Source of the DNA: Candidatus Babeliales bacterium
GTDB lineage: Bacteria; Babelota; Babeliae; Babelales; JBFXEV01
DNA: 64,000 nucleotides
Direction of reading: 5' to 3'
Assembly: GCA_050179755.1 (NCBI GenBank)
Contig: JBFXEV010000001.1
Span: 937,994-1,001,993 of the forward strand
Shown here: positions 3,821 through 56,670 of the stretch, in pieces
How positions within the stretch are numbered: position 1 is the stretch's first letter
Layout: the number at the start of each line of letters is the position of its first letter
Made by a program: the position numbers and the translations under genes
The notes under the pieces: generated by a model
Told to the model about the DNA's origin: nothing
Databases searched by the model: none
Seen by the model: only the letters and a program-made list of their open reading frames with translations

Positions 3821-4408
3821 TTAGAAGACTTCGCGTTCGTCAATGACTGTTTGATCAGCAGACGTATTATTTGCTTCAGGGCAATTGTTTAAAGTTGTAA
3901 GTAAATTAATTTGGTGTTCAATAGCGGTTTGTTCGTCTTTGTGCTCGGTAAGCGCTTGCTCTCTATCTTGTATTATTTCTGCTAATTGTGCTGCTTTTTT
4001 AGCATCTGTAAGAGCAATAGTGCGCATGGTAGGAATTGCTTTTTCAAGCGCAAGAATTTTTTTTGTTGTTTGTTTAAGTGCAGCATGCAATCCATCTAAT
4101 GTTTTTTGTTTTGACTTTCCGTATTGTTGCATTAAGAGATTGCGTTGTGCACACAGACTTTTAGCTGAATTTAATGTTTCAAGATCATGATTACCGCTTG
4201 TCAAAAATATTTCAATTTGTCGATCGAGACTTATGATTTGGGATTCAAGGGTACTTGGCGTTTGTGGTGCCTTTCGATCGGCAATAGGCTTTTCTTGAAT
4301 CATAAGTATGCTTGTATCCACTTGATCCATTGCGTTATTCAAAAAGCTTGCTAAAAATAAAAATGAAATCCATGTTAAAACTAATAAAGTATTAGAGCTG
4401 TATTTCAT
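3821..4408 (-). CDS. secreted coiled-coil hypothetical protein (signal peptide|MDQ)
   Basis: GGGAG SD before ATG 4408; hydrophobic leader ending NNA-MDQ; heptad-rich. Confidence 0.75.
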   Translation of the reverse strand: MKYSSNTLLVLTWISFLFLASFLNNAMDQVDTSILMIQEKPIADRKAPQTPSTLESQIISLDRQIEIFLTSGNHDLETLNSAKSLCAQRNLLMQQYGKSKQKTLDGLHAALKQTTKKILALEKAIPTMRTIALTDAKKAAQLAEIIQDREQALTEHKDEQTAIEHQINLLTTLNNCPEANNTSADQTVIDEREVF

Positions 4409-4443
4409 TTGATTTCTCCCTACATGTGGTAGCTCATTAAAAA

Positions 4444-4464
4444 GGGGTATGAACATCATACCCC
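4444..4464 (-). terminator. hairpin/intrinsic terminator between orphan genes
   Basis: GGGGTATG...CATACCCC stem followed by a U-tract on the minus strand. Confidence 0.5.
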
Positions 4465-4508
4465 ACTCACTATTCTTTGGTTACTATAGTCTATTTTTAA
4501 ATTATTTG

Positions 4509-5516
4509 CTACTTAAACCAGCCACGAGCTGCTTGGATTCCTTTTGCTCTAGCAAGTGCTTGATCCATTTCTTCAATTGCATTTTGCAAGGTAGTAATAT
4601 CTCGCTCTTTTTGTAGAAGTTGTGTTCTTAAATCAATTTTTATTTTTGAATCTTTTTCTTCTGGAATGGTTGCGCGAATGGCTGCAGCTTCATCAGTTAA
4701 TGTTTGTTTTTCACGTTCTTTGGCTGTGCGGCGTGCATCTAATTCCGCAATTAAAATCTCTTTTTCACGTTCTATGAGTGATCTTGTTTTAGTAACTTCT
4801 TGCATTTGTTGTTGAAGTTCACTAAGTGAATCTTTGGTTTGAGCATCTGCAGTTTGCAATGCTTCTTGATCTTTTATGAAAGGGCTAATTTCACCATTTA
4901 ATTTTGCCAAAGCTTCTTTTTTTTCTTGTGCTTCTTGTGCTCTTTTTGTTCGTTCTGCGGCAACTTTAGCAACAAGAGGAGGTTCAAGTTCTTCTCGTGA
5001 GAGATTGGCGAGTGCTGGCTCGTGCATGGCAAATTCCACAATTGCCTCATGTACGCGAGCGGCAGCAATTTTTTTACCTTTACACTTGAAGCCCTCGGTA
5101 ACTAGCGCAGTTTGTTCTTGTTGGAGCGCTTTCATTCTTGCAGTAAGAGGGTCTGTTTTTGTAGCCAATGCAAGGAGTGCAGCTGTGTGCCTTTGGCGTT
5201 CTGCTGTGAGTGTGGCTTCTTGCGCCAGTAATGGTCCAAGAATGGTTGTTTGTTCTTGTATTCTTTTTGTGCAGCCCAGTATACGGTCTGCAAGAGCCAT
5301 AGGTGTGAACGTGTGGCTCCTTACTTCTGTAAGCCATTGTTCTTCTAGAGATTTTATAGCTAGAGCTTCTTGAGCTTCCTTCCGCTGAGTTACTTTTGCG
5401 GCTATTTGCGCTGCAAAGGAGGTAGATAATTTTTTGTTGTCTTGGTCCATACTCTTTGTATGTGTTATAACTGAACCGAGCAGGATTAATGCACTATACT
5501 GTTTAAAAGAAAGCAT
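4509..5516 (-). CDS. secreted coiled-coil hypothetical protein (signal peptide|MDQ), paralog of 5581..6804
   Basis: 335 aa ORF, AAGGAG SD, hydrophobic leader, A/E/K/Q/L-rich heptads. Confidence 0.8.
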   Translation of the reverse strand: MLSFKQYSALILLGSVITHTKSMDQDNKKLSTSFAAQIAAKVTQRKEAQEALAIKSLEEQWLTEVRSHTFTPMALADRILGCTKRIQEQTTILGPLLAQEATLTAERQRHTAALLALATKTDPLTARMKALQQEQTALVTEGFKCKGKKIAAARVHEAIVEFAMHEPALANLSREELEPPLVAKVAAERTKRAQEAQEKKEALAKLNGEISPFIKDQEALQTADAQTKDSLSELQQQMQEVTKTRSLIEREKEILIAELDARRTAKEREKQTLTDEAAAIRATIPEEKDSKIKIDLRTQLLQKERDITTLQNAIEEMDQALARAKGIQAARGWFK

Positions 5517-5537
5517 GGTTAAGCTCCTTTTTTAAAA

Positions 5538-5561
5538 GAGGCCATGAGCAATCATGGCCTC
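5538..5561 (-). terminator. hairpin/intrinsic terminator
   Basis: GAGGCCATGA-4 nt-TCATGGCCTC followed by TTTT on the minus strand. Confidence 0.55.
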
Positions 5562-5580
5562 AAGTTAGCAATCTACTCTT

Positions 5581-6804
5581 CTATTTAGCACCAGAATAAT
5601 AACCAGCAAGCCATTTTGCAGTACCATAGGTCATATCTGCTTGTGCACGTGCTGTTCTAAGATTTGATATGGATTGTATTACTTGGGCAAGTTGTGCCTC
5701 GGTTGTTTTTTTGCTTTCAAGCAATGTAATCTTTGTTTCGGCATCTTTTTCAGTAGAAATTTCAGTTGTAAGATTGGCAACATCTTTTTTAAATGTTTCT
5801 CGTTGTGCTACTGCTAATTCAATAGATTGATCAAGCGCTAACAGTAATTTTTCACGGTCAGTTTGAGCAAGAATTTGTGCATTTTTTGCTTTTTCAAGTA
5901 ATTGTTCTAGTTCTGCTTGTTTTGCTTTTGTTTCTTGTTGTGCAGTTTCTACTTCTTTAAGTTGCGCAATAACAGGATTCAGCTTTTGTTCATGCGCTTG
6001 TTTTGCAACTGCAAGTACGCCAAGTTGAGTGGCAAGGGTTGCTTTTTTTCCAATTAATTTTGAAGCATAATTTGGCACTAATTCTTCACGTGTTACATCA
6101 GCAAGCGTTTGTTCATGCAGCTTTACATATTTCATTGTAGTATCCACACAACGATTGAGTGCTGCTTCTTGTTCGGCAAATTGAGCTTCTTGCGCTTGTA
6201 AATCTGCTTCATCTTGTGCAAGTTTTATAGCCTGTTCATCGAGAGGGCCTTTTACGGTCAACAAAGCAGCATGTTGTGTAGAAAGTGCTTCTTCTTTAGC
6301 TTTTAATGTAGCTTTTGCAGCGTCACGAGTTTTTTGAGTAGTTGTCTGTGCTTGGATATGGCGATCACGGCGGTGTACGCGAGCCACAATTTGATTTAAT
6401 CTGATAACTTCATCAGTAGTTTCTACTTCATCTTCAGTGCCAGATAAGTAGTCTGCTTCTAAATTTGCGTCTACTTTATCGGCGGCTGCTGTTGCTGAGT
6501 ATCTTGCCCATAATGCTTTGCGATCTGCTATTTTGCTTTTTGTCCGCGCAAGTGGATTTTCATCAGTTTCAAGAACGATTGAAGCATTACACGCTTCTAA
6601 AAGTTGTGCGCGTGTAGCTTCTGTAGGTAACCATGCTATGGTTCCTTGATGCTGTGCAACTTCAACGTTGCTTAATCTTGGTTGTAATGAGGCATATTTA
6701 TCTACAACTTCTGCAACTGGTGCAGCACCTTCAATTGGTTCCATTGCTTTTACACCAGAAACTGCTGTCGATAATAACAGAAGTGACATATAACGCTTAT
6801 TCAT
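5581..6804 (-). CDS. secreted coiled-coil hypothetical protein (signal peptide|MEP)
   Basis: 407 aa ORF, GAGGAG SD, leader ending VKA-MEP, long coiled coil. Confidence 0.8.
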   Translation of the reverse strand: MNKRYMSLLLLSTAVSGVKAMEPIEGAAPVAEVVDKYASLQPRLSNVEVAQHQGTIAWLPTEATRAQLLEACNASIVLETDENPLARTKSKIADRKALWARYSATAAADKVDANLEADYLSGTEDEVETTDEVIRLNQIVARVHRRDRHIQAQTTTQKTRDAAKATLKAKEEALSTQHAALLTVKGPLDEQAIKLAQDEADLQAQEAQFAEQEAALNRCVDTTMKYVKLHEQTLADVTREELVPNYASKLIGKKATLATQLGVLAVAKQAHEQKLNPVIAQLKEVETAQQETKAKQAELEQLLEKAKNAQILAQTDREKLLLALDQSIELAVAQRETFKKDVANLTTEISTEKDAETKITLLESKKTTEAQLAQVIQSISNLRTARAQADMTYGTAKWLAGYYSGAK

Positions 6805-7086
6805 AATAAGCTCCTCTCTTTGTAATTCTTGTACACACGGGTGTCTATAAGAATTAGGGATTTATAAGAACGGTAAGAAATCAGATCCTCCTGATCGTGA
6901 CTCCATTACTATTGTTATACTCCTTCTTTTAGAAAAAAGAAAAGGGTTGTTGGGGATTTTTCTTGTATGAATATAAGAAAGACTAATAAATGCGCCATTT
7001 TTATTGAGAAAAATTTTTTGAGTACGTGTGGATCCTTATTATGCAGGGATACGAGAGGCTTTTTTAATGGCCTCTCATGAGATTTT

Positions 7087-8193
7087 TTAATGTGCATGCC
7101 ATTTTAAGAGCGCATCACGTAATGGCTTCAGGCCTTCTTTAGTAAGGGTAGAACTTATGACATGTGGTTGATAGCTAAAAAGTTGTGCATGCAGTTCATC
7201 GGTCATTTCCACTTTGTCAGCTTTATTGAATACATAGAGTGTTTCTTTATCGATTTCAAGATCACGTAAAATGTTATGCACTATTTCTGCGTGTGATTGC
7301 CATAACGGATCAGAAAGATCTATAACGTGGAGCAGCAAGTCGGCATGTTCAAGCTCAGAAAGCGTTGATTTAAAAGCATCTATTAATTGTGGTGGTAACA
7401 TTTGAATAAAACCAACCGTGTCAGAAATTACGCCAACCTCTATGCCATTAATATTAAGCGTGCGCGTGGTAGTATCTAGCGTTGCAAACAGCTTATCTTC
7501 AGAAAGTACATCTGATTTGGTGAGCGAATTGAGCAAGCTTGATTTGCCGGCGTTGGTATAGCCAATTAAGCAAAGCTGGGGCACGCGGTTTTCAATGCGG
7601 CGTTTGCGCTGCGTGGCTCTGGTAGTTTGAATTTTTATAAGCTCTTCTTTGAGTTTTAATATTCGTTTATCAATAAGCCGTGCTTGGCGCTCTTTTAAGG
7701 TTTCTCCAGCACCGCTGCGCACGCCAATATTACCTTTTTGTTGTTCAAGCTCGTGCCCTTTACCTGCCAGGCGGGATTTTTCATGCTTAAGGCGTGCAAC
7801 CTCTACTTGTGTTTTGCCCTCGGCGGTAATTGCCGATTGCTCAAAAATATCCAAAATAAGTCGCGTGCGGTCGATCACATCAACATCGAGGATATCGGCA
7901 ATATTACGCTCTTGGAGCGCATTGAGTGGTTCCGAAATAATAATTTGTTCTATGCCCAGTTCTTCAACTTTTTGTAAAATTTCTTCAAGCTTACCTTTAG
8001 TAAAAAAGGTGGCAGAGTCGACTTCTCTTAATTTAATATAGAGCACGTCTTCATAAGGAACGCCTAACGTACGGACTAAATGGAGAAATTCTTCATAATA
8101 AGCGCCAATGTCAGGAGTTCTATTATAAGGAGCGTGTACTCCAACAAGGAGTGTGGTTGAATAGGGGCTAACTTGTTCTGCTATACGTACCAT
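7087..8193 (-). CDS. hflX: GTPase HflX
   Basis: DRTRLILDIF, GYTNAGKSSLLN, LFATLDTT, DTVGFI, NKAD. Confidence 0.95.
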   Translation of the reverse strand: MVRIAEQVSPYSTTLLVGVHAPYNRTPDIGAYYEEFLHLVRTLGVPYEDVLYIKLREVDSATFFTKGKLEEILQKVEELGIEQIIISEPLNALQERNIADILDVDVIDRTRLILDIFEQSAITAEGKTQVEVARLKHEKSRLAGKGHELEQQKGNIGVRSGAGETLKERQARLIDKRILKLKEELIKIQTTRATQRKRRIENRVPQLCLIGYTNAGKSSLLNSLTKSDVLSEDKLFATLDTTTRTLNINGIEVGVISDTVGFIQMLPPQLIDAFKSTLSELEHADLLLHVIDLSDPLWQSHAEIVHNILRDLEIDKETLYVFNKADKVEMTDELHAQLFSYQPHVISSTLTKEGLKPLRDALLKWHAH

Positions 8194-8317
8194 AGTTATT
8201 TACTTACAATCATTTTGTGATAAAAAAGCACTTTTTTAAGATGAGGGTCTTTAAATTTGTGGTATACTTGTGATGTTAGTATACACTATTTGTGATGTTT
8301 TCCTAAGGAAAAAAAGT

Positions 8318-9625: not shown

Positions 9626-9645
9626 TACTATTTTAAGGGAATTAT

Positions 9646-9894: not shown

Positions 9895-9916
9895 TCATTA
9901 ACATAGCTGATAGATA

Positions 9917-10150
9917 ATGGTAAATAAACTTATACTCCATATTGTTAAAAGCATTGTTGTTGAACAAGATAAAGTTCGCGTTGAAGATCAAACAAATGGT
10001 TCAACCTATATTGTGAACATTTGGGTGGCTCAAGACGACATGAAGCGTATTATTGGTAAAGAAGGCCGTGTTATAAAAGCAATTCGTGCGCTTATCAATG
10101 CTTTATCATCAGCTGAGCAGGTTGACGTGGTGCTTGATAGTCAGGCATGA
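9917..10150 (+). CDS. khpA: KH-domain RNA-binding protein KhpA
   Basis: DMKRIIGKEGRVIKAIR; conserved position after rpsP. Confidence 0.85.
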   Translation: MVNKLILHIVKSIVVEQDKVRVEDQTNGSTYIVNIWVAQDDMKRIIGKEGRVIKAIRALINALSSAEQVDVVLDSQA

Positions 10151-11448
10151 AGATTTCAATTGTTTCATTATTTCCAGAATTGTATAAGCCGTTTTTAAGC
10201 ACTAGTTTGCTTGAACGTGCATCTGATAATAAGTTGGTTGATATACAGATTACCAGCTTATTTTCTTTTTCTGCGGCTAAAGTACGCGTAGATGGCCCCG
10301 CCTTTGGGCATGGCGCTGGTATGGTACTTAAGCCAGAAGTGATAGAACGAGCTGTTGAGGACACACAAAAAGAGCGTGGTAAAGCGTTTAAAGTTTTCTT
10401 TTCTCCTCATGGTACTAAACTTGATCAAAATGTGCTTGCTACCATTAAAGACAAAGTACAAGCTTCTGATAATCATCTCATGCTTATACCGGCGCGTTAT
10501 GAGGGTATAGATGCTCGCGCAGAAGCGGAATACGCCGATATGATTATTTCTATTGGTGATTACGTGCTTATGGGCGGCGACGTGCCTGCGATGGTGCTTC
10601 TTGAAGGGTTGCTCAGGCTTATTCCAGGTGTTGTGGGTAAACAAGAATCAGTGGAGTATGAATCTTTTTCAGGTCCGTTTGTGGATTGGCCAGCTTACAC
10701 GGCACCAGTTGAATGGCATGGCAACATAGTGCCTGAAGTGTTGCGATCAGGAAATCATAAGGCTATTGAAGAATGGCGCACGCAAGAAGCTGCCAAGAGA
10801 ACGATGATTGGCCATTTTGATTGGCTGCGCACGCAAAAACTTACTGACGTGCAGAAAAAAATTGCGTATAAGCAAATTCCATCACACTATGTTGCTCTCA
10901 TGCACACTGATGTGCGTTTGCCGCATGACCAGGTGGGTACTTCGTCAGTTACTACCTATGACATTCATGATATTGCGCGCTCCTCGCGTACCTATGACCT
11001 TAAAAATTATTTTATAGTTACCCCGCTTATTGATCAGCAAAAAATCGTGCAAAAACTGCTTGATTTTTGGTCCAGTGATATTGGGATAGATTATAATCCG
11101 CAGCGCCATGGAGCAGTATCGCGAGTTAAGTTAGTTCCTGAGCTTACTGATGCTATTGAGGCTATTGAGGCTCAAGAAGGCAAAAAGCCATTGGTGATTG
11201 GCACTTCTGCACGCAAGCAAGATGCCGTTGGTAAACAGATTAGTTTTCATGATCAGGGTTATGTATGGTCTCAGGATAGACCAGTATTATTGCTATTGGG
11301 CACTGCACAGGGTTTAAGCCAAGAAATTATAGATCGCTGCGATTATGTGCTCAGCCCAATTGATGGATTTTCAGATTTTAACCATTTATCGGTTCGTTCC
11401 GCTGCGGCTATCATTTTTGATCGATGGTTGGGATTGAACCCAAAATAA
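10147..11448 (+). CDS. trmD: tRNA (guanine37-N1)-methyltransferase TrmD fused to a C-terminal Tm1570-like SPOUT methyltransferase
   Basis: N-half GHGAGMVLKPE, RYEGID, SIGDYVLMGG, VPEVLRSGNH; C-half YVALMH, DIHDIARSSRTY, LLLGTAQGL, FNHLSVRSAAAIIFDR. Confidence 0.92.
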   Translation: MKISIVSLFPELYKPFLSTSLLERASDNKLVDIQITSLFSFSAAKVRVDGPAFGHGAGMVLKPEVIERAVEDTQKERGKAFKVFFSPHGTKLDQNVLATIKDKVQASDNHLMLIPARYEGIDARAEAEYADMIISIGDYVLMGGDVPAMVLLEGLLRLIPGVVGKQESVEYESFSGPFVDWPAYTAPVEWHGNIVPEVLRSGNHKAIEEWRTQEAAKRTMIGHFDWLRTQKLTDVQKKIAYKQIPSHYVALMHTDVRLPHDQVGTSSVTTYDIHDIARSSRTYDLKNYFIVTPLIDQQKIVQKLLDFWSSDIGIDYNPQRHGAVSRVKLVPELTDAIEAIEAQEGKKPLVIGTSARKQDAVGKQISFHDQGYVWSQDRPVLLLLGTAQGLSQEIIDRCDYVLSPIDGFSDFNHLSVRSAAAIIFDRWLGLNPK

Positions 11449-11577: not shown

Positions 11578-12012
11578 ATGAGCAAGGCACAAGGTTATAC
11601 AAACGAAACAATAAAGCACTTGGGTGTAGCAAAGCGTACGCTACCTTTCTTTGGCATAGGTGACACTATTGTGGTGCATCAACGCATTAAAGAAGGTGGT
11701 AAAGAGCGTATTCAAACATTCCAAGGTGATGTTATTTGTATTCACCAAAATGGTAATGGCGCATCAGCTACGTTTACCGTGCGTAAACTTGGTGCTAACG
11801 CTGTATCGGTGGAACGTATTTTCCCTTATCACACGCCAATTATCTCTAAAATTGAATTAGTGAAACGTGGTAAAGTTCGTAGAGCTAAATTGTATTATTT
11901 ACGTGATCGCGTAGGTAGAGCAGCTCGTGTGACTGAAGACCGTGTAAATAAAGATTATGAAGGTCGTACTACTGGTGAAGTTGAAATTGTTGAAGAAACA
12001 GCAGCTGAGTAA
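11578..12012 (+). CDS. rplS: 50S ribosomal protein L19
   Basis: [34 protein letters not shown]. Confidence 0.97.
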
Positions 12013-12016
12013 TCCA

Positions 12017-12436
12017 GTGAATTACCGTCTTACAATTTTTGTTGCCATAGCGTGCATTTTTGCAGGTTGTGGCAACAAGTCTTTAAAGCAAGAGCAGCGC
12101 CATGCTTGGCAACAGGAACAAGCTCGTCTGTATGATATCCCGGTGCCAATTATGGCAGAACCTGATTTTGAATATACGTGGTCAGATGAACACGGCAGTA
12201 GAGTCTTGGGGTTTTTGGTGACTGCTGATAGCACGCAAGAACTGGTTGATTTTTATCGCGCTAACATGGTGCGCCATGGCTGGAGTGAGCGAGTTCTTAT
12301 TCGTGGCCGAGAAGTACTGATTGAATTTGAAAAACCAGAAAAGTTGTGCTGTGTTTCAGTGCGGCCTGAAGGGCAAGAAAAAATGAGATTAGTTCTTTCG
12401 GTAGGTTGCAAAGATATAGACGTGTTATATACATAA
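12017..12436 (+). CDS. putative lipoprotein
   Basis: GTG start; leader with lipobox IFAG-C. Confidence 0.65.
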   Translation: MNYRLTIFVAIACIFAGCGNKSLKQEQRHAWQQEQARLYDIPVPIMAEPDFEYTWSDEHGSRVLGFLVTADSTQELVDFYRANMVRHGWSERVLIRGREVLIEFEKPEKLCCVSVRPEGQEKMRLVLSVGCKDIDVLYT

Positions 12437-12469: not shown

Positions 12470-12485
12470 AATAATTAATTCTGAT

Positions 12486-42214: not shown

Positions 42215-42562
42215 ATGCGTATTTTAATTAATTCACTATTAAAATTAACGTTATTGGCACTCATTATATCTGTGGGCAGTGTTACTGCTATGGAATATGG
42301 GGATTTGCCTCAAAGTAATGCAGCGCCAACTATTGGCTCATGGGCATATGCTTTTATGCAGCCCTCAACTCCTGCAAAATCAGTAAAAGCAACAAATAAG
42401 GCACTGTATGCAGCTCCCGTAGCTGCTGCCGCGCCCGCATTATTATCTAAAAAAACTATGCTCATATTGGCAGGCGGATTGCTTACGCTATGGGCAGTTA
42501 AAAAAGTATACAATTGGATGTATAGTAAACCGAAGAATGGAGAAGTAACATGTTATCAATAA
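42215..42562 (+). CDS. secreted orphan (signal peptide|MEY) with C-terminal TM anchor
   Basis: GGAGG SD; leader ending VTA-ME; KK-TMLILAGGLLTLWAV-KK. Confidence 0.75.
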   Translation: MRILINSLLKLTLLALIISVGSVTAMEYGDLPQSNAAPTIGSWAYAFMQPSTPAKSVKATNKALYAAPVAAAAPALLSKKTMLILAGGLLTLWAVKKVYNWMYSKPKNGEVTCYQ

Positions 42563-43518
42563 AAAAACAATTATTAGTGCTCGCACTTACGGCAAGCGTT
42601 GCAGCACCAGTTTGCGCAATGGACCAGCAAGATTCATCAAGCTTGATCAATTGGAAAACCGGAGCAGTAGCTGCTACCGCGCTTGTTATAGGATTAGGCT
42701 GTGCTGCAAGATGGCTAACTTTTGGTACACCAGTAAAACAATTAGATACACTTGAGCAGTCAACTAAGGTTGCCGGTCAAGCAGATCAAGGCCAGGCTGC
42801 GCAACAACCTTTGCAAGAAGATAAATCGCAAGCACTTCAACAAGATAAAACTCAAGATGCACAAGCGCAAAAGCCGGTTCAAGATGTAGATGCTCAAAAT
42901 CAGCAGCCATCAGCAACGGCAATAAAGCGTCGCCCAGCGGGTCAAGCCGGCAGAAGGTTGCCTACAAGAAAGCCTGTAAAAACGCAGGATGAGCTTAATT
43001 TGGATGTAGAGGCTCCTGTTCAAGATGAACCAGCAGTTGAACCAAACGCAGCTCAACCAGCCGCTCCTGCGACCCAAAAACCTTTAAATGGAAAAGGTTA
43101 CGGAGTGAATCTTGGTGATCTTACAGCAACTAAATTAAAGAAAACAGTAAAAACTACCGCTACAGTTCCAGCAAAAGCTGCACAACCTAAGCCGCTTCCA
43201 CAAGTGCCAACGGCAAAAGAAGTGGTTGTTGAACAACCTACTGCAGATATGCTTGAACAATTTGCTCAAGAAATAGAGGATTTTAAAGCAATATCCCTTG
43301 CAAATCAAAAAAGCGAATTAGCAGCTACTGTGCAAGCATATGTTACACAACCAATACAAGATACTCAAAATCTTCTTAAAGTGTACGTGCAAATATATGG
43401 TGAGCGTGTAAAATCAAATGCGTTGGCCATTGCAATGACTAAGTTGTTTGCAACAAAAACGCCAGCACAAAGAAGTGCAGAATTCAATAACATTAAGCAA
43501 ATTCTTGGTGTGCGGTAA
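42550..43518 (+). CDS. secreted orphan (signal peptide|MDQ) with signal anchor, low-complexity linker and C-terminal helical domain; candidate effector
   Basis: Leader ending VCA-MD; WKTGAVAATALVIGLG; C-terminal domain shared with 44011..44610. Confidence 0.8.
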   Translation: MLSIKKQLLVLALTASVAAPVCAMDQQDSSSLINWKTGAVAATALVIGLGCAARWLTFGTPVKQLDTLEQSTKVAGQADQGQAAQQPLQEDKSQALQQDKTQDAQAQKPVQDVDAQNQQPSATAIKRRPAGQAGRRLPTRKPVKTQDELNLDVEAPVQDEPAVEPNAAQPAAPATQKPLNGKGYGVNLGDLTATKLKKTVKTTATVPAKAAQPKPLPQVPTAKEVVVEQPTADMLEQFAQEIEDFKAISLANQKSELAATVQAYVTQPIQDTQNLLKVYVQIYGERVKSNALAIAMTKLFATKTPAQRSAEFNNIKQILGVR

Positions 43519-43533
43519 CAGAGAAATATTGAG

Positions 43534-43565
43534 ACATGCCACTCGCTGAGAGTGGCATGTTTTTT
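43534..43565 (+). terminator. intrinsic terminator
   Basis: ACATGCCACTC-loop-GAGTGGCATGT followed by T-tract. Confidence 0.75.
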
Positions 43566-43589
43566 AATGACACAGAGGTTTATAACATT

Positions 43590-44009
43590 ATGCTTACTTC
43601 AATAATAAAAAAAATAGTAATGTTTGCTTTTATTATGGGGATTGTGGCTCCTATTACAGCAATGGATTCTCATCAAGATTCGCGCTGGTTTGGATGGAAG
43701 TCAGCAACAGGGGCTACCGCATTAGTGGTAGGTCTTGGAGCTTGGTGGTTGTATACTCATTGGAATAAGTCGGTATCAAAGCGAAATAGTACTACAAAAA
43801 GTACTCGTGCAGCAACAAAGCCATCAAAGCGCCAAGTTTCGCCCAACGCCAAAACTCAATCAGTCCAAGATTCCTCTCCTATGGTGACCACTGCGCAAGC
43901 GCCAATAATGGCATATGAAGATATAACAGATGAATATCTTGATAGAGAAATAGCTCAACTAGAACGTGAAATCGCTGAGGATAAAGCTAGAGAAAACAAA
44001 GGGAAATAA
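43590..44009 (+). CDS. secreted orphan (signal peptide|MDS) with signal anchor
   Basis: GAGG SD; leader ending ITA-MD; FGWKSATGATALVVGLGAWWLY then basic tract. Confidence 0.75.
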   Translation: MLTSIIKKIVMFAFIMGIVAPITAMDSHQDSRWFGWKSATGATALVVGLGAWWLYTHWNKSVSKRNSTTKSTRAATKPSKRQVSPNAKTQSVQDSSPMVTTAQAPIMAYEDITDEYLDREIAQLEREIAEDKARENKGK

Positions 44010-44010
44010 C

Positions 44011-44610
44011 ATGGTATCACTATATAAAAAATTACTTATGTTTGCACTTATCGCAAGCATTGTCGCTCCTCTTTCTGCAATGGATTCACAAGAAACTACG
44101 TCATCTGGATTTGGATGGAAAGCTGGCTTAGGTTTAACTGCCGCCGTGGCAGGAACCGGGTTGGCAGCATATTTGGCTTATTCTTCGTGGAACAGGCCAG
44201 CAACTAAGCCTGTTGGATGTGTGCGCCAAAAGTCGTCAGTGCGTTGGGCTACGCCCACAGCAGCGGATATTGCTCAAATGGAACAAGAAGAGCGTGCAGC
44301 ACAGGATGCTGCATTACAAGAGTTAGAAGGGCAAGCTGCATCGCAAGAATCGATGATTCTAGAAGATTTTAGAAGCGCTAATGCCCAGACACAAAAGATA
44401 GAGATTGCAAAACAAGCATTTCAATATATTGATTCTCCAGAACAAGAAACTGAAGATCTGATAAGGCAGTATGTTCAAATCTATAGTCACCGATTAAAAT
44501 CACCAGATCTCGATATTGCAATGAATCGCTTATTTGCGGCAAAGGATAAAGCGGCAAAGACTATTGAATTAACCAAGATCAAGCAAATGCTTGGCTTAGT
44601 TTATTACTAA
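44011..44610 (+). CDS. secreted orphan (signal peptide|MDS) with signal anchor; paralog of 42550..43518
   Basis: Leader ending LSA-MD; FGWKAGLGLTAAVAGTGLAAYLAY; YVQIY..R.KS..L.IAM..LFA.K shared. Confidence 0.8.
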   Translation: MVSLYKKLLMFALIASIVAPLSAMDSQETTSSGFGWKAGLGLTAAVAGTGLAAYLAYSSWNRPATKPVGCVRQKSSVRWATPTAADIAQMEQEERAAQDAALQELEGQAASQESMILEDFRSANAQTQKIEIAKQAFQYIDSPEQETEDLIRQYVQIYSHRLKSPDLDIAMNRLFAAKDKAAKTIELTKIKQMLGLVYY

Positions 44611-44630
44611 TTTAACGAGTATATAGTATT

Positions 44631-44666
44631 AAAAACGTGCCACTGGTCAAAAGGTGGCACGTTTTT
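44631..44666 (+). terminator. intrinsic terminator, similar to 43534
   Basis: AAAAACGTGCCACT...GGTGGCACGTTTTT. Confidence 0.8.
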
Positions 44667-44765
44667 ATTTTATACTATTACAAATAGAAAAGCTTGTGTG
44701 GTATGCTAAAAGTAGAATGAGCTGTTCTGTTGCTCTTAGATGGAAACATTAATGATGGAGGTAGT

Positions 44766-49566: not shown

Positions 49567-49584
49567 TACGAAAGAGGAGGTATC

Positions 49585-50403: not shown

Positions 50404-50511
50404 TGATTGCGTAATGTTCTTTTAACGTGCAGGGCATTGACAATAGAAGCATCTTTTTAGTATTTCTTAAATAAGTAAGTGATACGTTTGGTTTTTAAAT
50501 GGGGAATTACT

Positions 50512-51600
50512 ATGACCAAATATATACTTTTTGTCAGTTTACTCATAACCACGTATGCATTACCTGCGCATGACGAAAAAAAAGGGTCTCACATGAACGT
50601 AGCAATAAATGGGTTTGGCAGAATTGGCAGAAATTTTTTACGTTGCGTGCTGGAGGATTCTGCTGCGTGCAAAAAAATTAAGATAGTTGCTATTAATTTG
50701 GGGCCCATGAATTTAGATGCAGCAGCGCATCTTTTTAAGCATGACACGTTACTGGGCACGTGGCCTGGTAATGTTGAATTGAAAGGTGATAATCTGATAA
50801 TTGATGGCCATGAGATTTTACTTTCAACCGAATGCGATCCTTGTGCGTGCCCTTGGAAAAAGCTTAACATTGATTGGGTTGTGGAATCATCAGGGCGATT
50901 TACCGATCACGATGGTGCAAGTGGGCATCTAAAAGCAGGCGCACGTCATGTGCTCGTCACCGCTCCTATGAAAGGTGATGACACATCTATTGTTCCGGGA
51001 GTTAATTTACATGATTATGATGCCAAGCGAGATAGCATTGTTTCTCTTGGCAGTTGTACTACTAATGCATTAATGCCGCTTTTAAAAGTGCTGCTAGAGC
51101 AATGCGGCATGCAAGCAGGTTATATGTCTACCATTCATGCTTATACAAATGATCAAGTAATACTTGATGTTGGCCATAAAGATTTGCGCAGGGCACGAGC
51201 TGCCGCCGTTAATATTGTGCCTACTACTACGGGTGCTGCTACTATGATAGCAAAATTATTCCCGCAATTAAAAGATAAGGTACCATGCACGTCAATACGC
51301 GTGCCAGTTCCCAAAGTATCGCTTCTTGATGTGTCATTTACGGCAGATAAAGCAATGTCTGTAGAATTGATTAACAAAGCGCTGCTTAAAGCATCGCAAG
51401 ATGATTTGCAATCTATAATGGGTTACTCAGATGAACCGCTTGTTTCATCTGATTACAATAAAAATAATAATTCAGTAACCATTGATAGCTTAATGACGCA
51501 AGCGTGTGGTAAAACAGGCAGAGTCTTTGGTTGGTATGATAACGAATGGGGTTATAGTGAACGGCTCAAAGACTTTCTTATATATATAGCAGATCACTAA
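50512..51600 (+). CDS. gap: type I glyceraldehyde-3-phosphate dehydrogenase with N-terminal signal-peptide-like extension (alternative start 50593)
   Basis: AINGFGRIGR, SCTTN, HAYTNDQ, RRARAAAVNIVPTTTGAA, WYDNEWGYS. Confidence 0.93.
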   Translation: MTKYILFVSLLITTYALPAHDEKKGSHMNVAINGFGRIGRNFLRCVLEDSAACKKIKIVAINLGPMNLDAAAHLFKHDTLLGTWPGNVELKGDNLIIDGHEILLSTECDPCACPWKKLNIDWVVESSGRFTDHDGASGHLKAGARHVLVTAPMKGDDTSIVPGVNLHDYDAKRDSIVSLGSCTTNALMPLLKVLLEQCGMQAGYMSTIHAYTNDQVILDVGHKDLRRARAAAVNIVPTTTGAATMIAKLFPQLKDKVPCTSIRVPVPKVSLLDVSFTADKAMSVELINKALLKASQDDLQSIMGYSDEPLVSSDYNKNNNSVTIDSLMTQACGKTGRVFGWYDNEWGYSERLKDFLIYIADH

Positions 51601-52058
51601 TTATTGTTGATATTAAGAGCGCCTACTAGATCTTTAGCTTCTTTAGCAATTGCCGATAAGGTACGTGCGGTGCCTTGCTTTACGTCATCTTTTTTGGGGT
51701 AATATTTATAATTACCATTTTTTAAGATTACAAGCTTGGGGCTAAGAGATAAGGGACTAATATCTACATGGAGCGCATACGTGCTTTCATCCTGAGAAGT
51801 TCGAGGTACCGCAGCGATGCCCATTGATTTTACTGGTATGAGCACTTTTGATTGAACCCAAGTTATTTTTTTTACTGGTTGTAGACCAGAATTAAGTGTT
51901 TGAGGGGCGTTGTTATCAACAATGCGCGAACCTACGCCTTCTCCTTTATCATTAAAAAGAGTAACGATCACTGAGTCGTTTGAGCTGTTTTGTACTTTAA
52001 GCGTAGCGCTATAAAGCGTTTGTGCGCAGATGAGTGAAACTAATAGCAACTTTTTCAT
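51597..52058 (-). CDS. secreted hypothetical protein
   Basis: GAGG SD; MKKLLLVSLICAQTLYS leader. Confidence 0.7.
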   Translation of the reverse strand: MKKLLLVSLICAQTLYSATLKVQNSSNDSVIVTLFNDKGEGVGSRIVDNNAPQTLNSGLQPVKKITWVQSKVLIPVKSMGIAAVPRTSQDESTYALHVDISPLSLSPKLVILKNGNYKYYPKKDDVKQGTARTLSAIAKEAKDLVGALNINNN

Positions 52059-52198
52059 TTTGCCCTCATTTTAATTTTTGATATAATATTTAATTTCTAC
52101 TATCATTTTATCTGAAATTGAACCTTCAAATCAATATATGGCTCGATTTAGTTACTTCACAAAGGTAATAATTTAGGTTACTATGTAAGAGCTCTGGA

Positions 52199-52275
52199 GG
52201 GCCCATAGCTCAGTCGGTTAGAGCAATCGGCTCATAACCGAGAGGTCCCAGGTTCGAGTCCTGGTGGGCCCACCA
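52199..52275 (+). tRNA. tRNA with CAT anticodon, probably tRNA-Ile2 (lysidine) rather than Met
   Basis: Cloverleaf with GGGCCCA/TGGGCCC acceptor, CTCATAA loop, GGTTCGAGTCC, CCA; no fMet C1:A72 mismatch or GGG/CCC anticodon stem. Confidence 0.9.
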
Positions 52276-52335
52276 TTCACTACAAAATAAGGGGTGTACA
52301 GCATGAATGTTCAGCCAGTAGAAAAAGGTGTTTTC

Positions 52336-53037
52336 GTGAACGAGTCCCCATTGCAAAAGCTCATTGAGCTTGTGAAGTTTGACCAAAAAATCTTAGTTCT
52401 TGAGCATTCGCTCAATTCTCTTGAAAACGAAGTTGCTCAGCATGAGCAAGAAATTTCCCAGATTCAGCATCATCTTGACGTTGCAAAGCAGCATATGCGT
52501 GCAACACGTAAAATTGTTGATGAAAAAGAGCTACGTATGAAAGAGCTTGATCAGATGGAAAAAGACGCCAAAAAGCGTTTAGAGCTCGTGCAGGGTCAAC
52601 GGGAATATGAGTCGGGCATGAAGCAGATTAAGTCGATTCAGAAAGAACAACAAGATTTTGAAGAGCAATTGCTTGAAAGCTGGAAACAGTTTGAGCATGC
52701 ACAAGCGCAATATACTGATAAGTTGCAATTTGTGAATGATAAAACAAAAGAACTGAACGATTTAGTGAGTTCACAATCTATAAAAATAGAAGAATTAAAA
52801 AAAGAAATTGCACTACAAAGCAAAGATAGGCCAGTTATGGAGCTGTCTATTCCCGAAGATTTGATTGCAAAGTACCAGGTGATGCGCAAACGCGTGAAAG
52901 ATCCGGTAGTGCCATTAGAGCATGGTAGTTGCAGTGCTTGTTTTTATCATGTTTTGCAGCAAGATCTTATATCTATCCAACGTGGCGCGCTTAAGCAGTG
53001 CCATAATTGCTTTAGATTTCTCTATTATCCAAAATAA
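52336..53037 (+). CDS. coiled-coil C4 zinc-ribbon protein (DUF164/CT398-like)
   Basis: Long coiled coil then CSAC...CHNCFRFLY; adjacent to RNase H. Confidence 0.85.
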   Translation: MNESPLQKLIELVKFDQKILVLEHSLNSLENEVAQHEQEISQIQHHLDVAKQHMRATRKIVDEKELRMKELDQMEKDAKKRLELVQGQREYESGMKQIKSIQKEQQDFEEQLLESWKQFEHAQAQYTDKLQFVNDKTKELNDLVSSQSIKIEELKKEIALQSKDRPVMELSIPEDLIAKYQVMRKRVKDPVVPLEHGSCSACFYHVLQQDLISIQRGALKQCHNCFRFLYYPK

Positions 53038-53041
53038 CATG

Positions 53042-53128
53042 ATCCTTCGACAAGCTCAGGATGATCGGGATGAAAACATAAGTTACTTGTCCGCTGTAGC
53101 TTTAGCGAAGGCTGGAAGGGATACGAGC
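53042..53128. repeat. composite intergenic repeat: ATCCTTCGACAAGCTCAGGAT hairpin plus REP-like GTAGCTTTAGCGAAG
   Basis: Two palindromes; the second core matches other copies in the window. Confidence 0.65.
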
Positions 53129-53161
53129 TTTACGATACAAATAATTTTTTGAAAGAAATAT

Positions 53162-53677
53162 ATGTCTCAGTTGAAACTATTCAACTCATGCCATCCTACG
53201 CCACCAGAACCAAAAGTTGGCGGTAGTAGATGGACACTTTTTATCGATGGTGCATCACGTAAAAATCCGGGTATTGCAGGAGCCGGCGTTTATTTACTCA
53301 AAGATGATATGCCTAATTTTCAGAAAGGTTTTTATTTAGGGCATAAAACAAATAATCAGGCAGAATATTTGGCTCTTCTCTTGGGCATATTCCACGCAAA
53401 AGAACATTTAAAAAAAGTTGATGCGCTCTATATTATTTCGGATTCAGAGCTTTTGATCAAGCAAATGAAGGGTGAGTATAAAGTTAAAAATCAGCCGCTT
53501 AAAGAATTATTTGATATAGCACATCTTTTATTAAAAGATGTCAGCTATACGTTATGCCATGTTCGAAGAGAAAAAAATATTGAAGCAGATGAGCTTGCCA
53601 ATGTTGGCATTGATAAAAAGGGAAAAGTCCCAGAATCTTTTATAGCGCTGCTGAAATCTCATGGTCTTTCGCTGTAA
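53162..53677 (+). CDS. rnhA: ribonuclease HI
   Basis: FIDGASRKNPG, TNNQAEY, SDSELL, HVRREKN..ADELAN. Confidence 0.92.
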   Translation: MSQLKLFNSCHPTPPEPKVGGSRWTLFIDGASRKNPGIAGAGVYLLKDDMPNFQKGFYLGHKTNNQAEYLALLLGIFHAKEHLKKVDALYIISDSELLIKQMKGEYKVKNQPLKELFDIAHLLLKDVSYTLCHVRREKNIEADELANVGIDKKGKVPESFIALLKSHGLSL

Positions 53678-54980
53678 TATTTTTTTCATGTTTGTTATAA
53701 CTTTGTTCGTGAACGCTTTTGGCGCGAGCACCCGTGACTATGAAAGCGGTGTATCGCTTATCTATCGAGCAGCAGTTATTCGAGCAAATTACCAAAAATT
53801 ACCCTATCGCAAGCGGCCGCGCTGGCAAGCCTATTATCTTGCAGCATTATATCCGCTCGGTGCACATGTGCATGCCAGGCTTGCACAAGACACAAACAAT
53901 GCTGATCAATTTACGTATCAGGTACGCGTATTGCTTCATGAAATTGATCAGAAAGAAGCTGGCAGCTGGAAGCTATCTTCGCCGCAAGGAGTGATAGTTA
54001 AAAATTTTAAAGTGGGCGAGTGGGCGCAATTCCCTCATATGGTGACAGTTGAGTATCGTAATGGAGCGCTGTTTATTAATAAACATAAATCTGCGTCAGA
54101 GCAAATTTGGATAGAGCCTGTCAGTGGCTTTTTGCATTTAAATGGTAATGATTATGCAGGGACAATGCTTTTTGTGAAAGATAAAAAAAAGGGCTATTGT
54201 ATTAGCCAGCTTGATATAGAAGCATATATTGGTTCCGTGCTACGTTGCGAAAGTTGGCCAGGTTGGCCAATTGAGGTTAATAAGGCGTTTGCCATTGCAT
54301 GTAGAAGTTATTTAGTTTCCAAAATAGCAGTGGCCACCCAACGGGGTTTGCCGTTCCATATTAAAAATACTAACATTCATCAAACTTATAACGGCGTGCA
54401 TACCAGCGCTGAGCTTTTGCAGGCAGTTAATGAAACGAAGGGTATTATTTTAGCACATAATAAAAAACCTATAGAAGCAATGTTTGATAGTTGTTGCGGG
54501 GGCGTAATTCCCGCGCATATTGAAGGCGTTGACTTTGCCAAGGCTCCCTATCTTGCACGAACTTCTCTTTGCACCTATTGTAAGCCGTGCAAGATATATA
54601 ATTGGCATGCAGAATATCCGCTCAGTGATGTAGCGCATCGCATGCGTAAAGCTGGCATTAAGGTTAACGCCGTGGATTCAATGGAAATTACCAAACTTGA
54701 TAAAGCGGGCCTTGTAAAAGAAGTGATAGTTAAAGATGGTAAAAAAAGGTATAAATTAAATGGCAAGCAGTGTTATGCTTTGTTTGATAAAGTTAATAGT
54801 TTTTGTTATTCAATAAAAAAAGAGAATAAATCTTTAGTGCTTGCAGGGCGCGGCTATGGGCATCATTTGGGCATTTGCCAATGGGGTGCTCGTAGAATGC
54901 TTGACCACGGTAAGACGTATAGAGACATTTTAGAGTTTTATTATCCTGGTGTTGAGTTTATGAAATTGACAAGTGCTTAA
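53661..54980 (+). CDS. SpoIID/LytB-family peptidoglycan lytic transglycosylase
   Basis: EAYIGSVL..E, KAFAIACRSY, SCCGG, APYL, GRGYGHHLGICQWGA, ILEFYYPG. Confidence 0.88.
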   Translation: MVFRCNIFFMFVITLFVNAFGASTRDYESGVSLIYRAAVIRANYQKLPYRKRPRWQAYYLAALYPLGAHVHARLAQDTNNADQFTYQVRVLLHEIDQKEAGSWKLSSPQGVIVKNFKVGEWAQFPHMVTVEYRNGALFINKHKSASEQIWIEPVSGFLHLNGNDYAGTMLFVKDKKKGYCISQLDIEAYIGSVLRCESWPGWPIEVNKAFAIACRSYLVSKIAVATQRGLPFHIKNTNIHQTYNGVHTSAELLQAVNETKGIILAHNKKPIEAMFDSCCGGVIPAHIEGVDFAKAPYLARTSLCTYCKPCKIYNWHAEYPLSDVAHRMRKAGIKVNAVDSMEITKLDKAGLVKEVIVKDGKKRYKLNGKQCYALFDKVNSFCYSIKKENKSLVLAGRGYGHHLGICQWGARRMLDHGKTYRDILEFYYPGVEFMKLTSA

Positions 54981-54983
54981 ATG

Positions 54984-55067
54984 GCCTGTCCGCCGGCCTG
55001 TGCGCCGTAACTTTTTAGTGAAGGCGTGAGCTTGCCGAGCCTGAAGGCCCGGATAAGCGAAGGAGGA
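54984..55067. repeat. nested degenerate REP-like elements
   Basis: GCCTGTCCGCCG...GCGAAGGAGGA enclosing GCGCCGTAACTTTTTAGTGAAGGCGT. Confidence 0.55.
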
Positions 55068-55153
55068 AGTTTATGAAATTAACCTCAGCACAAGCGTAGC
55101 CTATTCACTTGGGGTGAGCCGGTGAAGCAAATAAATCGTGGGAGGTATGAAGC

Positions 55154-55615
55154 ATGCCAAATTATAAAAGTCACTTAACCGGTGGATTAGTAGCGGCCGG
55201 GATCTTGTTATATTTTATGAGCTGGTGGTTATCCGTAAGTGCTGCACTTGCCGTGCAACTTGTGCTGTGCGCATTATTTGGGAGCTTGTTTCCTGATATT
55301 GATACCAAAAGCCAAGGGCAATTGCTCTCATATCGTTTTCTTGGCATTGTACTCATTGTTCTGATACTTCAACAACGCGTGGTCTTGGCTCTTGCTTGTA
55401 GTGCTGTGGGGATTTTGCCACTCATCGTGCATCACAGAGGACTATTTCATAGAGCATGGTTTATTGCTGCAGTGTGCATAGGCATAGTTACCTATGCCTA
55501 TCTTTATCAGTCAGCCTATCTATCTCTAGTTGTATTGCACGCAGTATTTTTCTTTGTTGGTGCACTCTCACACATTTGGCTTGATGTAGGTATTAAGAGA
55601 ATGTTTAGGGTATAA
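55154..55615 (+). CDS. membrane metal-dependent hydrolase (YdjM-like)
   Basis: YKSH, GSLFPDIDT, HRGLFH, SHIWLD; several TM helices. Confidence 0.85.
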   Translation: MPNYKSHLTGGLVAAGILLYFMSWWLSVSAALAVQLVLCALFGSLFPDIDTKSQGQLLSYRFLGIVLIVLILQQRVVLALACSAVGILPLIVHHRGLFHRAWFIAAVCIGIVTYAYLYQSAYLSLVVLHAVFFFVGALSHIWLDVGIKRMFRV

Positions 55616-55638
55616 AAGTACTTACGTACTTTGGATGT

Positions 55639-56670
55639 TTATTCATCCTTTTCTTTTTTTATCTTGTCTGATGCGTGTCCAGCTTCATGTAACTTTTTTA
55701 ACCGATCTTGTGCTTTAAGTACTGTATAAAATCGTAGAGCATATAAATTTAAGCTTTCAGGAACTTCATTATTCGTTAAAGCAGTTGAAGCACTTCTTAT
55801 GTTTATCTCAGCTGTAAATGGTGAAGGTGAGCTGTGCTGCACGGTGGCTAAAATATGTTTGGCAGTACCGGCAAGTTCAATAGCCTTTTTATCGGCTTTC
55901 GTTTCGCTTGATATTTGGCAACTTTCGTTTCGTACAAAATGCAGTAAAGCTAGACAGGGAAAAAATGGTAGAACAATAAGAGGATTTAAAAGTAGCGCGA
56001 CTGCCGTAGCACCCAGAACTCCTCCTGCCGATTGTGTATTTATTTTAAATTGCTGAACGAGGCCATCATCATTTCTGGAATATGCCATGGAAATACGGGC
56101 AATTTCGCGTTCAATCATGCCAAGAAGTATATGTGTATGCTTGTTTTGAGTGGGAGTGGTTTGTGCTTCATGTTTTTCTTGTTTTGCAAGTTCATACGTT
56201 GTGCTGGGTAGCGCAATTGCGTGGCAAATATAGCCATCTATAAAATGAGTAACCGAAGCAGCCGTAAGCGCATCAAGATGCACGTTGCGACGATCGTTAG
56301 GACTTTGCTTATAAAGGCAGAGCCAGTTAGCTTTGCTTTCTGGGCTATTTAGTTTTGCTTTTTGGGCTACTGTAGTAAGGTGTTCATCTTGTTCAAGTTC
56401 GGTTAACCGTTCATCTTCAATACTTATTCCTTGTTGTGCAAATAGCGTTTGAACTGTAGCATATCTTTCACTTTCAAAAGGCATAAATCTTTGCTTTCCT
56501 AGACAAGTGCTTACAATAGTTCTTTCCAAATTGCCACTAAGCAATAACCCGCTTAATCTGCTTGCACAGGAAGTTGTAGGTTGAGGCATGAGTGCCTGAG
56601 GCTCCATAGTATAATTTGACATGCTTATTATTAAGCTAAGGAATGAAATTGTGTGTAGTGCTTTGTTCAT
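55639..56670 (-). CDS. secreted orphan (signal peptide|MEP), possible inactive M48-like peptidase
   Basis: GGAG SD; leader ending NYT-MEP; REIAR, TM segment, ETKADKKA. Confidence 0.7.
   Translation of the reverse strand: MNKALHTISFLSLIISMSNYTMEPQALMPQPTTSCASRLSGLLLSGNLERTIVSTCLGKQRFMPFESERYATVQTLFAQQGISIEDERLTELEQDEHLTTVAQKAKLNSPESKANWLCLYKQSPNDRRNVHLDALTAASVTHFIDGYICHAIALPSTTYELAKQEKHEAQTTPTQNKHTHILLGMIEREIARISMAYSRNDDGLVQQFKINTQSAGGVLGATAVALLLNPLIVLPFFPCLALLHFVRNESCQISSETKADKKAIELAGTAKHILATVQHSSPSPFTAEINIRSASTALTNNEVPESLNLYALRFYTVLKAQDRLKKLHEAGHASDKIKKEKDE

Follow-up and report, generated by a model that had tools for sequence, protein, structure and literature searches.

Why should eight exported proteins of one bacterium, drawn from unrelated families, each place a Met and then an acidic residue exactly where the signal peptide is predicted to end? 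The eight are encoded in a 64,000-nt stretch of Candidatus Babeliales bacterium (Dependentiae/TM6; contig JBFXEV010000001.1, positions 937,994 to 1,001,993), which is referred to here in its whole length as the window. Dependentiae are widespread, mostly uncultured parasites of protists. An earlier reading of this DNA from its letters and translations (the sequence-only reading) had proposed that cleavage exposes a eukaryote-like Met-Asp/Glu terminus on proteins delivered to the host. The explanation we favor, at a rough probability of 0.45, is that these are Sec-exported, lineage-specific Babeliales proteins following what we call the Met-acid rule, in which Met-Asp/Glu would mark a subset of exported proteins for a second step after the predicted cleavage. 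The rule consists of a signal peptide of n-h-c build (basic n-region, uncharged hydrophobic core, polar c-region), a small residue at -1 (usually Ala), then Met, then Asp or Glu and rarely Gln. The genes and the signals that frame them are listed below by window coordinates and strand, with a slash in the one-letter strings marking the predicted cleavage.

3821..4408, minus strand: o4408, putative orphan coiled-coil-like protein; 26-residue leader, NNA/MDQ, with the +1 Met (ATG 4330-4328) followed by Asp
4444..4464, minus strand: terminator-like hairpin between the o5516 stop and the o4408 start; 9-pair stem, then a T run
4509..5516, minus strand: o5516, family A; 22-residue leader, TKS/MDQ (ATG 5450-5448), the site before Met top-scoring
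5581..6804, minus strand: o6804, family A; 20-residue leader, VKA/MEP (ATG 6744-6742), mature part of long helices
42109..42136, plus strand: promoter-like site upstream of the four-gene cluster 42215-44610; 10 of 12 consensus positions matched, a consensus match only
42215..42562, plus strand: o42215, small putative orphan protein; 25-residue leader, VTA/MEY (ATG 42290-42292), site top-scoring
42550..43518, plus strand: o42550, family B; leader, VCA/MDQ (ATG 42619-42621)
43590..44009, plus strand: o43590, short form of family B; leader, ITA/MDS (ATG 43662-43664), second hydrophobic segment
44011..44610, plus strand: o44011, family B; leader, LSA/MDS (ATG 44080-44082), second hydrophobic segment, C-terminal helical bundle
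44630..44667, plus strand: strong terminator-like hairpin just past the o44011 stop, closing the four-gene cluster; 15-pair stem, then a T run
55639..56670, minus strand: o56670, orphan; 21-residue leader, NYT/MEP (ATG 56607-56605), central hydrophobic hairpin-like stretch

Translation bore out all eight junctions, a Sec-type leader standing directly before M-D or M-E, and the five proteins that had been set against them as lacking the feature (starts 1369, 13031, 44766, 52058, and 61455) indeed have no Met at the junction. Read from these starts, all eight pass our signal-peptide heuristic in each of its three regions. Their leaders do not resemble the other common classes of export signal. 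Arg-Arg, the Tat twin-arginine motif, occurs in none of the eight leaders as translated. The +1 residue is Met in all eight and hence no lipobox Cys is present for signal peptidase II, while the same script recognized true lipoboxes elsewhere in the window (e.g., in the open reading frame [ORF] 11957-12436, where the lipoprotein start codon lies inside the ORF). No type IV pilin-like (class III) pattern was found in the eight: their hydrophobic stretch comes ahead of the junction, the residue at -1 is Ala, Ser, or Thr, and the Glu at +5 pattern is missing.

The sequence-only reading had counted at least three unrelated families; blastp separates the proteins into five groups: family A (o5516 and o6804), family B (o42550, o43590, and o44011), and three singles. 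An hhalign comparison of o4408 with family A found no relation (Prob 1.5%), none of the eight proteins reached a curated cut-off in Pfam or NCBIfam, and in a word-indexed search of 5.8 billion proteins o42550 and o56670 each matched only itself. A search of the protein collection with family A returned three proteins from outside the window (P0005, P0006, and P0002, the last being the ortholog in the related locus L001), and an exhaustive profile search with family B returned 23 proteins at E <= 1e-3, relatives that the word-indexed search with o42550 had missed. Pfam gave no match on 16 of the family B homologs, save an unrelated TSP3 repeat in P0027. Recent horizontal transfer of the eight genes was considered and rejected: their mean G+C of 0.40 and third-position G+C (GC3) of 0.26 lie close to the 0.41 and 0.31 of the 61 other window ORFs (the window as a whole is about 40% G+C), so that there is no sign of foreign origin.

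Comparative material came from a genome-collection scan with Ffh as the query, which yielded eight bacterial loci (L001 to L008), all from Dependentiae or unclassified metagenome-assembled genomes. The best Ffh identity to the window, 80%, is found in L001 (Candidatus Babeliales bacterium), and Vermiphilus pyriformis (L004) stands at 56%. Signal peptidase sites were ranked with a self-written scorer that applies the -3/-1 rule and is blind to the +1 residue, a crude heuristic and not SignalP; on Escherichia coli it recovers what we take to be the published cleavage sites of SurA, DegP, and BamA. Before counting, 24 listed ORFs (7 in the window and 17 in the loci) were removed, as were the lipoproteins. 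The 24 had been identified through Pfam or BLAST as relatives of UvrD, MurC, YidC, an antiporter, RseP, YdjM, and SecD, except for a few that visual inspection marked as N-terminal membrane anchors. The remaining set comprises 59 signal-peptide-like proteins in 195 kb of Dependentiae DNA.

Met takes the +1 position more often than any other residue in this set, at the best site in 11 of the 59 (binomial P = 1e-8) and at any allowed site in 16; the scorer missed four cases counted by eye (L001 654, L001 4976, L006 7113, and L002 1934). Gln stands at +1 in 4 of the 59, which is not the pattern of the Bacteroidetes Q-rule. The same code run on 200 kb of E. coli K-12 gave a +1 Met in 1 of 40 signal-peptide-like ORFs, a false positive in the membrane protein NhaA, and no in-register case. 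The enrichment that had been predicted over background is thus present. Beyond residue 40, Met-Asp/Glu occurs 83 times in 50,386 residues (0.00165 per position). It stands 2 to 9 residues after an uncharged hydrophobic core in 20 of 36 cases at index 12 to 60 versus 5 of 76 deeper in the proteins; 3 of those 20 are out of register (an ORF-extension artifact at UvrD, L004 7076, and the second, later Met in L008 9268). Asp or Glu is found at +2 in 16 of the 20 motif proteins recognized by eye in the window and related loci versus 1 of 31 second residues at true housekeeping starts (P = 1e-8). The junction is absent from conserved exported housekeeping proteins in the same DNA (SpoIID-like, GMC oxidoreductase, the 13031 type, and lipoproteins), as the sequence-only reading had anticipated.

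Conservation within the families points the same way. In family A (6 sequences), the Met at position 21 of o6804 is kept in 6 of 6 and is one of 22 invariant columns among 407. The orthologs of o6804 (P0002, P0005, and P0006) are 43 to 48% identical to it, with a nearly identical leader and M-D/E kept, while the L001 ortholog of o5516 (6243-7244), at 33% identity, keeps M-D despite a diverged leader. The family B alignment joined the three window paralogs to 15 members from outside the window that have the N-terminal module, for 18 sequences in all; a fragment (P0020), two proteins with the C-terminal domain only (P0025 and P0026), one with a different N-terminus (P0027), and P0029 were left out. 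Mean column identity is 19%, and the only invariant columns are A23 (-1) and M24 (+1), with P20 (-4), D25 (+2), and W35, a Trp 11 residues on from the Met, at least 90% conserved. Among the 15 members from outside the window, the junction reads A/M-D in 14 and A/M-E in 1. This pattern argues that the +1 Met junction is under strong selection. A shared DNA cassette for the leaders was also considered and rejected: in local alignments of 15 leader DNA segments, similarity above the null is found essentially only within paralog or ortholog sets (scores of 18 to 34, against a shuffled-null maximum of 13), the pair o42215/o43590 lying just above the null at 14.

The internal Met could instead be the real start, a possibility that the sequence-only reading had raised against itself. 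Shine-Dalgarno (SD)-like sites (GGAG, GAGG, AGGA, or GGGA, 5 to 13 nt upstream) precede all eight leader ATGs and none of the eight internal ATGs. In o4408, GGAGA lies 6 nt before the ATG at 4408 and no SD precedes the ATG at 4330; the longest ORF starts at 4459, and we prefer 4408 because of the SD-like site and because the terminator-like hairpin 4464-4444 falls within the longer ORF. Mean mRNA folding energy between -20 and +20 is -3.1 kcal at 15 leader ATGs and -2.75 kcal at 27 housekeeping starts; it is -4.6 kcal at 15 +1 ATGs, which differ from true starts (P = 0.006) and not from 420 other in-frame internal ATGs (-5.7 kcal; P = 0.17). By manual count, the leader DNA of o6804 and of its L001 ortholog differs by 6 synonymous changes, 6 conservative changes, and an in-frame 6-nt indel, and the leader is nearly unchanged in P0005 and P0006 although the whole proteins are 46 to 48% identical. 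As far as the sequence can tell, the leaders are translated Sec-type signals that begin at the upstream ATG, and the internal Met is not the true start.

Two leader-like extensions elsewhere in the window deserve description in this connection. The longest ORF of UvrD (1499-3796, minus strand) opens with a TTG codon and places 17 partly hydrophobic residues ahead of the true Met-Glu start; no such extension exists in the L001 ortholog, and the window UvrD serves as a worked example of a pseudo-leader. The GAPDH gene (50479-51600, plus strand) has an in-frame, signal-peptide-like extension of 27 residues (about 50509-50589), separated from the canonical start Met by 8 residues. Both ATGs are preceded by weak SD-like sites, and the extension represents either an exported GAPDH or a start-calling artifact.

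The UvrD pseudo-leader, one clear instance, lends some color to the view that the leaders are untranslated products of chance or ORF calling and the internal Met the only real start, and public gene calls for two of these genes (P0004 and P0007) do start inside the leader. We reject it, and consider it barely credible, on the SD sites, the openness of the mRNA, the enrichment, the conservation of the leader through synonymous changes and throughout its families, and the E. coli control; UvrD is the one real artifact. A neutral origin, in which older ORFs acquired signal peptides by lengthening at the 5' end and kept their former initiator Met as a leftover, could draw on both the UvrD and the GAPDH extensions as present-day examples. 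It is nevertheless very unlikely, since the Met is kept in orthologs of 33 to 48% identity and, despite a mean identity of 19%, in all 18 members of family B, stands exactly at +1 and is not scattered near the site, and is followed by a residue sharply unlike that at true starts.

Another proposal is that translation may also begin at the internal ATG and that this second start is conserved, so that each gene would yield a long form for export and a short form that lacks the leader and stays in the cytoplasm. Invariance of the Met would then follow directly, as its single codon is also a start codon, and many genes of this genome start without a clear SD (30 of 75 ORFs in our scan). However, SD-like sites divide 8 of 8 to 0 of 8 between the leader and the internal ATGs, the mRNA folds at the +1 ATG much as it does at ordinary internal ATGs, and the proposal leaves unexplained both the invariant Ala at -1 with the Pro at -4 and an Asp or Glu at +2 that is rare at true starts here (1 of 31). 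We regard it as improbable. Taken together, the sequence comparisons indicate that selection maintains the junction, which is restricted to the lineage and, within it, to some of the predicted Sec substrates; it is not a chance product, a start-codon relic, or a DNA cassette.

The junction recurs in relatives, as the sequence-only reading had expected. By eye, 20 motif proteins of about 14 unrelated families were recognized in 8 genomes: 8 in the window, 5 in L001, 2 in L002, and one each in L003, L005, L006, L007, and L008. The L001 cases are 1-635, 654-1847, 4976-6154, and the orthologs of o5516 (33% identical) and o6804 (43%). L005 7028, L006 7113, and L003 42 have a Met-acid junction, and variants are seen in L002 3702 (Met-Gly-Met-Glu), L002 1934 (Met-Arg), and L007 558 and L008 9268 (both Met-Gln). 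Two bearers carry recognizable domains: a C2H2 zinc finger above the Pfam cut-off lies behind a signal peptide with +1 Met in L008 9268-9597 (plus strand), and a PLD-like domain lies behind another in L001 654-1847 (minus strand). Both domains look eukaryote-like or effector-like, as is typical of host-directed proteins. The flank of UvrD (window 3821-6804; L001 1-8625), with HflX on one side, appears as a hotspot of rapidly changing motif-bearing genes. It holds three such genes in the window and five in L001, only two pairs of which are orthologous (33 to 43% identical), beside UvrD and HflX genes that are 87 to 88% identical between the window and L001.

The interpretation given in the sequence-only reading is supported in part, and a cut directly before the Met is a prediction. 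By the heuristic, the site before Met is the best one in 6 of the 8 proteins; in o4408 and o56670 it is allowed and not best, LAS/FL outscoring NNA/MD in the former and SMS/NY outscoring NYT/ME in the latter. A further hydrophobic segment is present in four of the eight (o42215, o42550, o43590, and o44011), with Lys/Arg residues C-terminal to it in o42215, o43590, and o44011 and less clearly in o42550; this segment suggests that the four are anchored in a membrane of the bacterium and not freely secreted. In o42215 the segment is C-terminal and is followed by a basic tail, and in o42550 the junction is followed by a Trp-Lys motif, the second hydrophobic segment, a Gln/Pro-rich linker, and a C-terminal helical domain.

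The same architecture admits an uncleaved leader, serving as a signal anchor or as the first helix of a membrane hairpin, with Ala-Met-Asp as a membrane-interface or turn motif, at least in family B and o42215. In all 18 family B sequences the leader is followed by a loop of 12 to 15 residues, in which a Trp-x-x-Trp-Lys-like motif is conserved, and then by another hydrophobic segment, after which come basic residues in most members. Yet the junction is also found in soluble coiled-coil proteins that have no second segment (family A and o4408), and the core of only about 15 to 16 residues, the Pro at -4, and the small residues at -1 and -3 are typical of cleaved signals. In P0025 and P0026, moreover, this C-terminal domain follows a plain leader and the second segment is missing. 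We regard an uncleaved leader as unlikely. As an observation in its own right, the family B helical domain stands in P0025 and P0026 behind ordinary leaders that have no +1 Met, and it seems to match twice in P0025. Its occurrence behind plain leaders would place the domain outside the cytoplasm, at odds with the topology that is predicted for family B.

Structural models shed some light on what the mature parts may be. The AlphaFold2 model of o6804 (predicted local distance difference test score [pLDDT], 74) has helices at residues 132 to 230, 245 to 351, and 355 to 389, and that of o44011 (pLDDT, 75 overall) exceeds 90 for residues of about 110 to 190 and has a confident C-terminal helical bundle. 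Neither model had a match in the PDB at E <= 1e-3; coiled-coil and helical-bundle matches, including chains of pore-forming toxins, were nonsignificant, and the ESM Atlas gave no usable feature match for o6804. For o56670 its nearest entry is Peptidase M48/HtpX-like (score, 0.92; 158 shared features; TM, 0.47), a sub-threshold lead only. No HEXXH was found on reading the sequence, and o56670 is possibly a degenerate M48-like membrane protein.

Under the Met-acid rule, the leader, of normal n-h-c build, is translated from the upstream ATG, with the Met in register with the -3/-1 cleavage pattern, and directs export by Sec; signal peptidase I would then cut before the Met, leaving a mature protein that starts with Met-Asp/Glu. 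The new N-terminus, or the junction itself, would be the recognition element for a second step that acts on some exported proteins and not on others, either to sort or retain them once Sec has exported them or to protect or modify the new N-terminus, as for the +1 Gln in Bacteroidetes. The conserved Met and acidic residue at the predicted cut look like an undescribed, lineage-specific maturation or sorting mark, carried by what are predicted to be soluble coiled-coil proteins and membrane-anchored proteins alike. The apparently rapid turnover of its bearers, in islands beside housekeeping genes, fits proteins of the host interface.

Several observations weigh against this explanation. The scorer is crude and cleavage before the Met is a prediction only; the site before Met is weak in about 5 of the 20 motif proteins, with Thr at -1 in o56670, L001 1-635, and L001 4976-6154 and Asn at -3 in o4408 and o56670. 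Given the second hydrophobic segment in family B and o42215, the leader of these proteins may instead open a membrane hairpin that is never cut. Nor does the rule extend to the whole phylum: among signal-peptide-like proteins, the scorer finds it in 0 of 7 from the Vermiphilus locus (L004) and in 3 of 27 from L005 to L008, with none in L006, whose single case by eye it missed. One possible ortholog pair, in which only the leaders align, has MD in one member and QE in the other. The family B homologs come without labels of taxonomic origin, and the counts include paralogs and orthologs, which by our own rough estimate would collapse to about 14 of about 57 families.

In a stronger version of the Met-acid rule, Babeliales would use the +1/+2 pair Met-Asp/Glu as a dedicated code for a second step, selecting a host-interface sub-secretome for onward transport or for insertion into host-facing membranes, in a phylum whose only known secretion system is of type II. 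It would then amount to a +1 rule at the level of a phylum, the second after the Bacteroidetes Q-rule. The signal would then be either the Met-acid N-terminus or a Pro-x-x-Ala/Met-Asp junction read by a specialized leader peptidase. We hold this version to be rather doubtful.

The sequence-only reading went further, taking the exposed Met-Asp/Glu of host-delivered proteins for mimicry of NatB substrates, for avoidance of N-degrons, and/or for a host-delivery code. Met-Asp, Met-Glu, and Met-Gln N-termini are NatB classes, and Asp or Glu at position 2 blocks removal of the Met. Asp, Glu, or Gln is found at +2 in 18 of the 20 motif proteins (counted over the printed N-termini), and the relatives' bearers include the C2H2 zinc-finger protein and the PLD-like protein described above. 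NatB, however, acts mainly cotranslationally on ribosomes, and Ala, Ser, and Gly N-termini are equally stabilizing, so that avoidance of N-degrons leaves the choice of Met unexplained. The further membrane segment in four of the eight window proteins, with basic flanks in three, also sits poorly with delivery into the host. In favor of the account, ankyrin proteins of Dependentiae are reported to bear signal peptides, and the only secretion system reported is of type II (PMC4378268, PMC6561590); the share of genes with signal peptides is very large, 44% of the coding sequences in Chromulinavorax (PMC6561590). On balance, we judge this account quite improbable.

Housekeeping genes identified in the window by Pfam are UvrD, HflX, Ffh, S16, a TrmD fusion, L19, MurC, YidC, RecR, GAPDH, SerRS, and SecD, and a long ribosomal protein operon from S12 to L17 with adk, map, and infA was recognized by ORF order and sizes, L17 being the only member of it scanned with Pfam. 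The TrmD gene (10147-11448, plus strand) is fused to a second domain, an S-adenosylmethionine-dependent RNA methyltransferase (Pfam Methyltrn_RNA_4), and this 433-residue fusion is kept in L001, L002, and L004 to L008. A CT398-like coiled-coil hairpin domain (Pfam, E = 1.4e-8), of a family named after a Chlamydia protein, is encoded at 52294-53037 (plus strand). The gene at 61455-63008 (plus strand) encodes a large exported protein with an ordinary leader (IAA/QD) and no family match, the N-terminal half of which is long, acidic, low-complexity sequence rich in Pro, Glu, and Ala and the C-terminal half of which is helical.

By analogy, the closest precedent of the Met-acid rule is the Bacteroidetes Q-rule, in which the +1 residue of signal peptidase I substrates is Gln and is cyclized to pyroglutamate (PMC5837995, PMC10653852, as far as the portions available go). 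Both are lineage-specific +1 preferences of Sec/signal peptidase I substrates that are tied to the fate of the new N-terminus and not to cleavage itself. The Met-acid rule would thus work like the Q-rule and is not a member of it: the residues are Met-Asp/Glu in place of Gln, the Q-rule covers most signal peptidase I substrates of its phylum whereas the Met-acid rule covers a subset (about half in this genus and few elsewhere), and the modifying enzyme of the Q-rule is known (glutaminyl cyclase) while none is known here. The portions available of PMC5837995 mention neither Met nor TM6. In the literature found on secretion in Dependentiae, TM6, or Babeliales and on NatB and bacterial effectors, a search in which subscription journals were thinly covered, the rule is not described.

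Other systems resemble it in single features. Eukaryotic NatB N-termini (Met followed by Asp, Glu, Asn, or Gln) match the predicted mature ends of 8 of 8 window proteins and 18 of 20 overall as a criterion of sequence, but they belong to proteins made on host ribosomes, and the bacterial proteins are likened to them by predicted sequence alone. Acidic residues right after the cleavage site also decide the next destination in lipoprotein sorting, as with the Lol-avoidance Asp at +2 and the acidic lipoprotein export signal of Bacteroidetes; there, however, a lipidated +1 Cys and signal peptidase II are involved, and here a +1 Met and no lipobox Cys. Chlamydial Inc proteins, with their bilobed hydrophobic domain, recall the two N-terminal hydrophobic segments, short loop, and variable C-terminal domain of family B, but they are substrates of type III secretion with a nonhydrophobic N-terminal signal, while the first segment of family B looks like a Sec signal. 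In Plasmodium, the export element PEXEL marks proteins for export into the host cell by way of an ER-type signal and subsequent processing that leaves Glu, Gln, or Asp as the second residue of the mature protein. It shares with the Met-acid rule the form of a two-step code and an acidic-type second residue at the mature N-terminus; it differs in being eukaryotic and in its processing, an aspartic protease cutting after RxL, away from the signal peptide, and no RxL is present in the Met-acid proteins.

Set among these systems, the Met-acid rule would stand beside the Q-rule as the only other known +1 rule of signal peptidase I substrates that is specific to a lineage. Occurring in unrelated, fast-evolving families and not in housekeeping exports, the mark may offer a simple handle for telling host-directed from periplasmic proteins by their sequence. 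Should the second-step code prove true, the host-directed repertoire of uncultured Dependentiae would become readable from sequence, and the Met-acid rule would be a bacterial counterpart of PEXEL.

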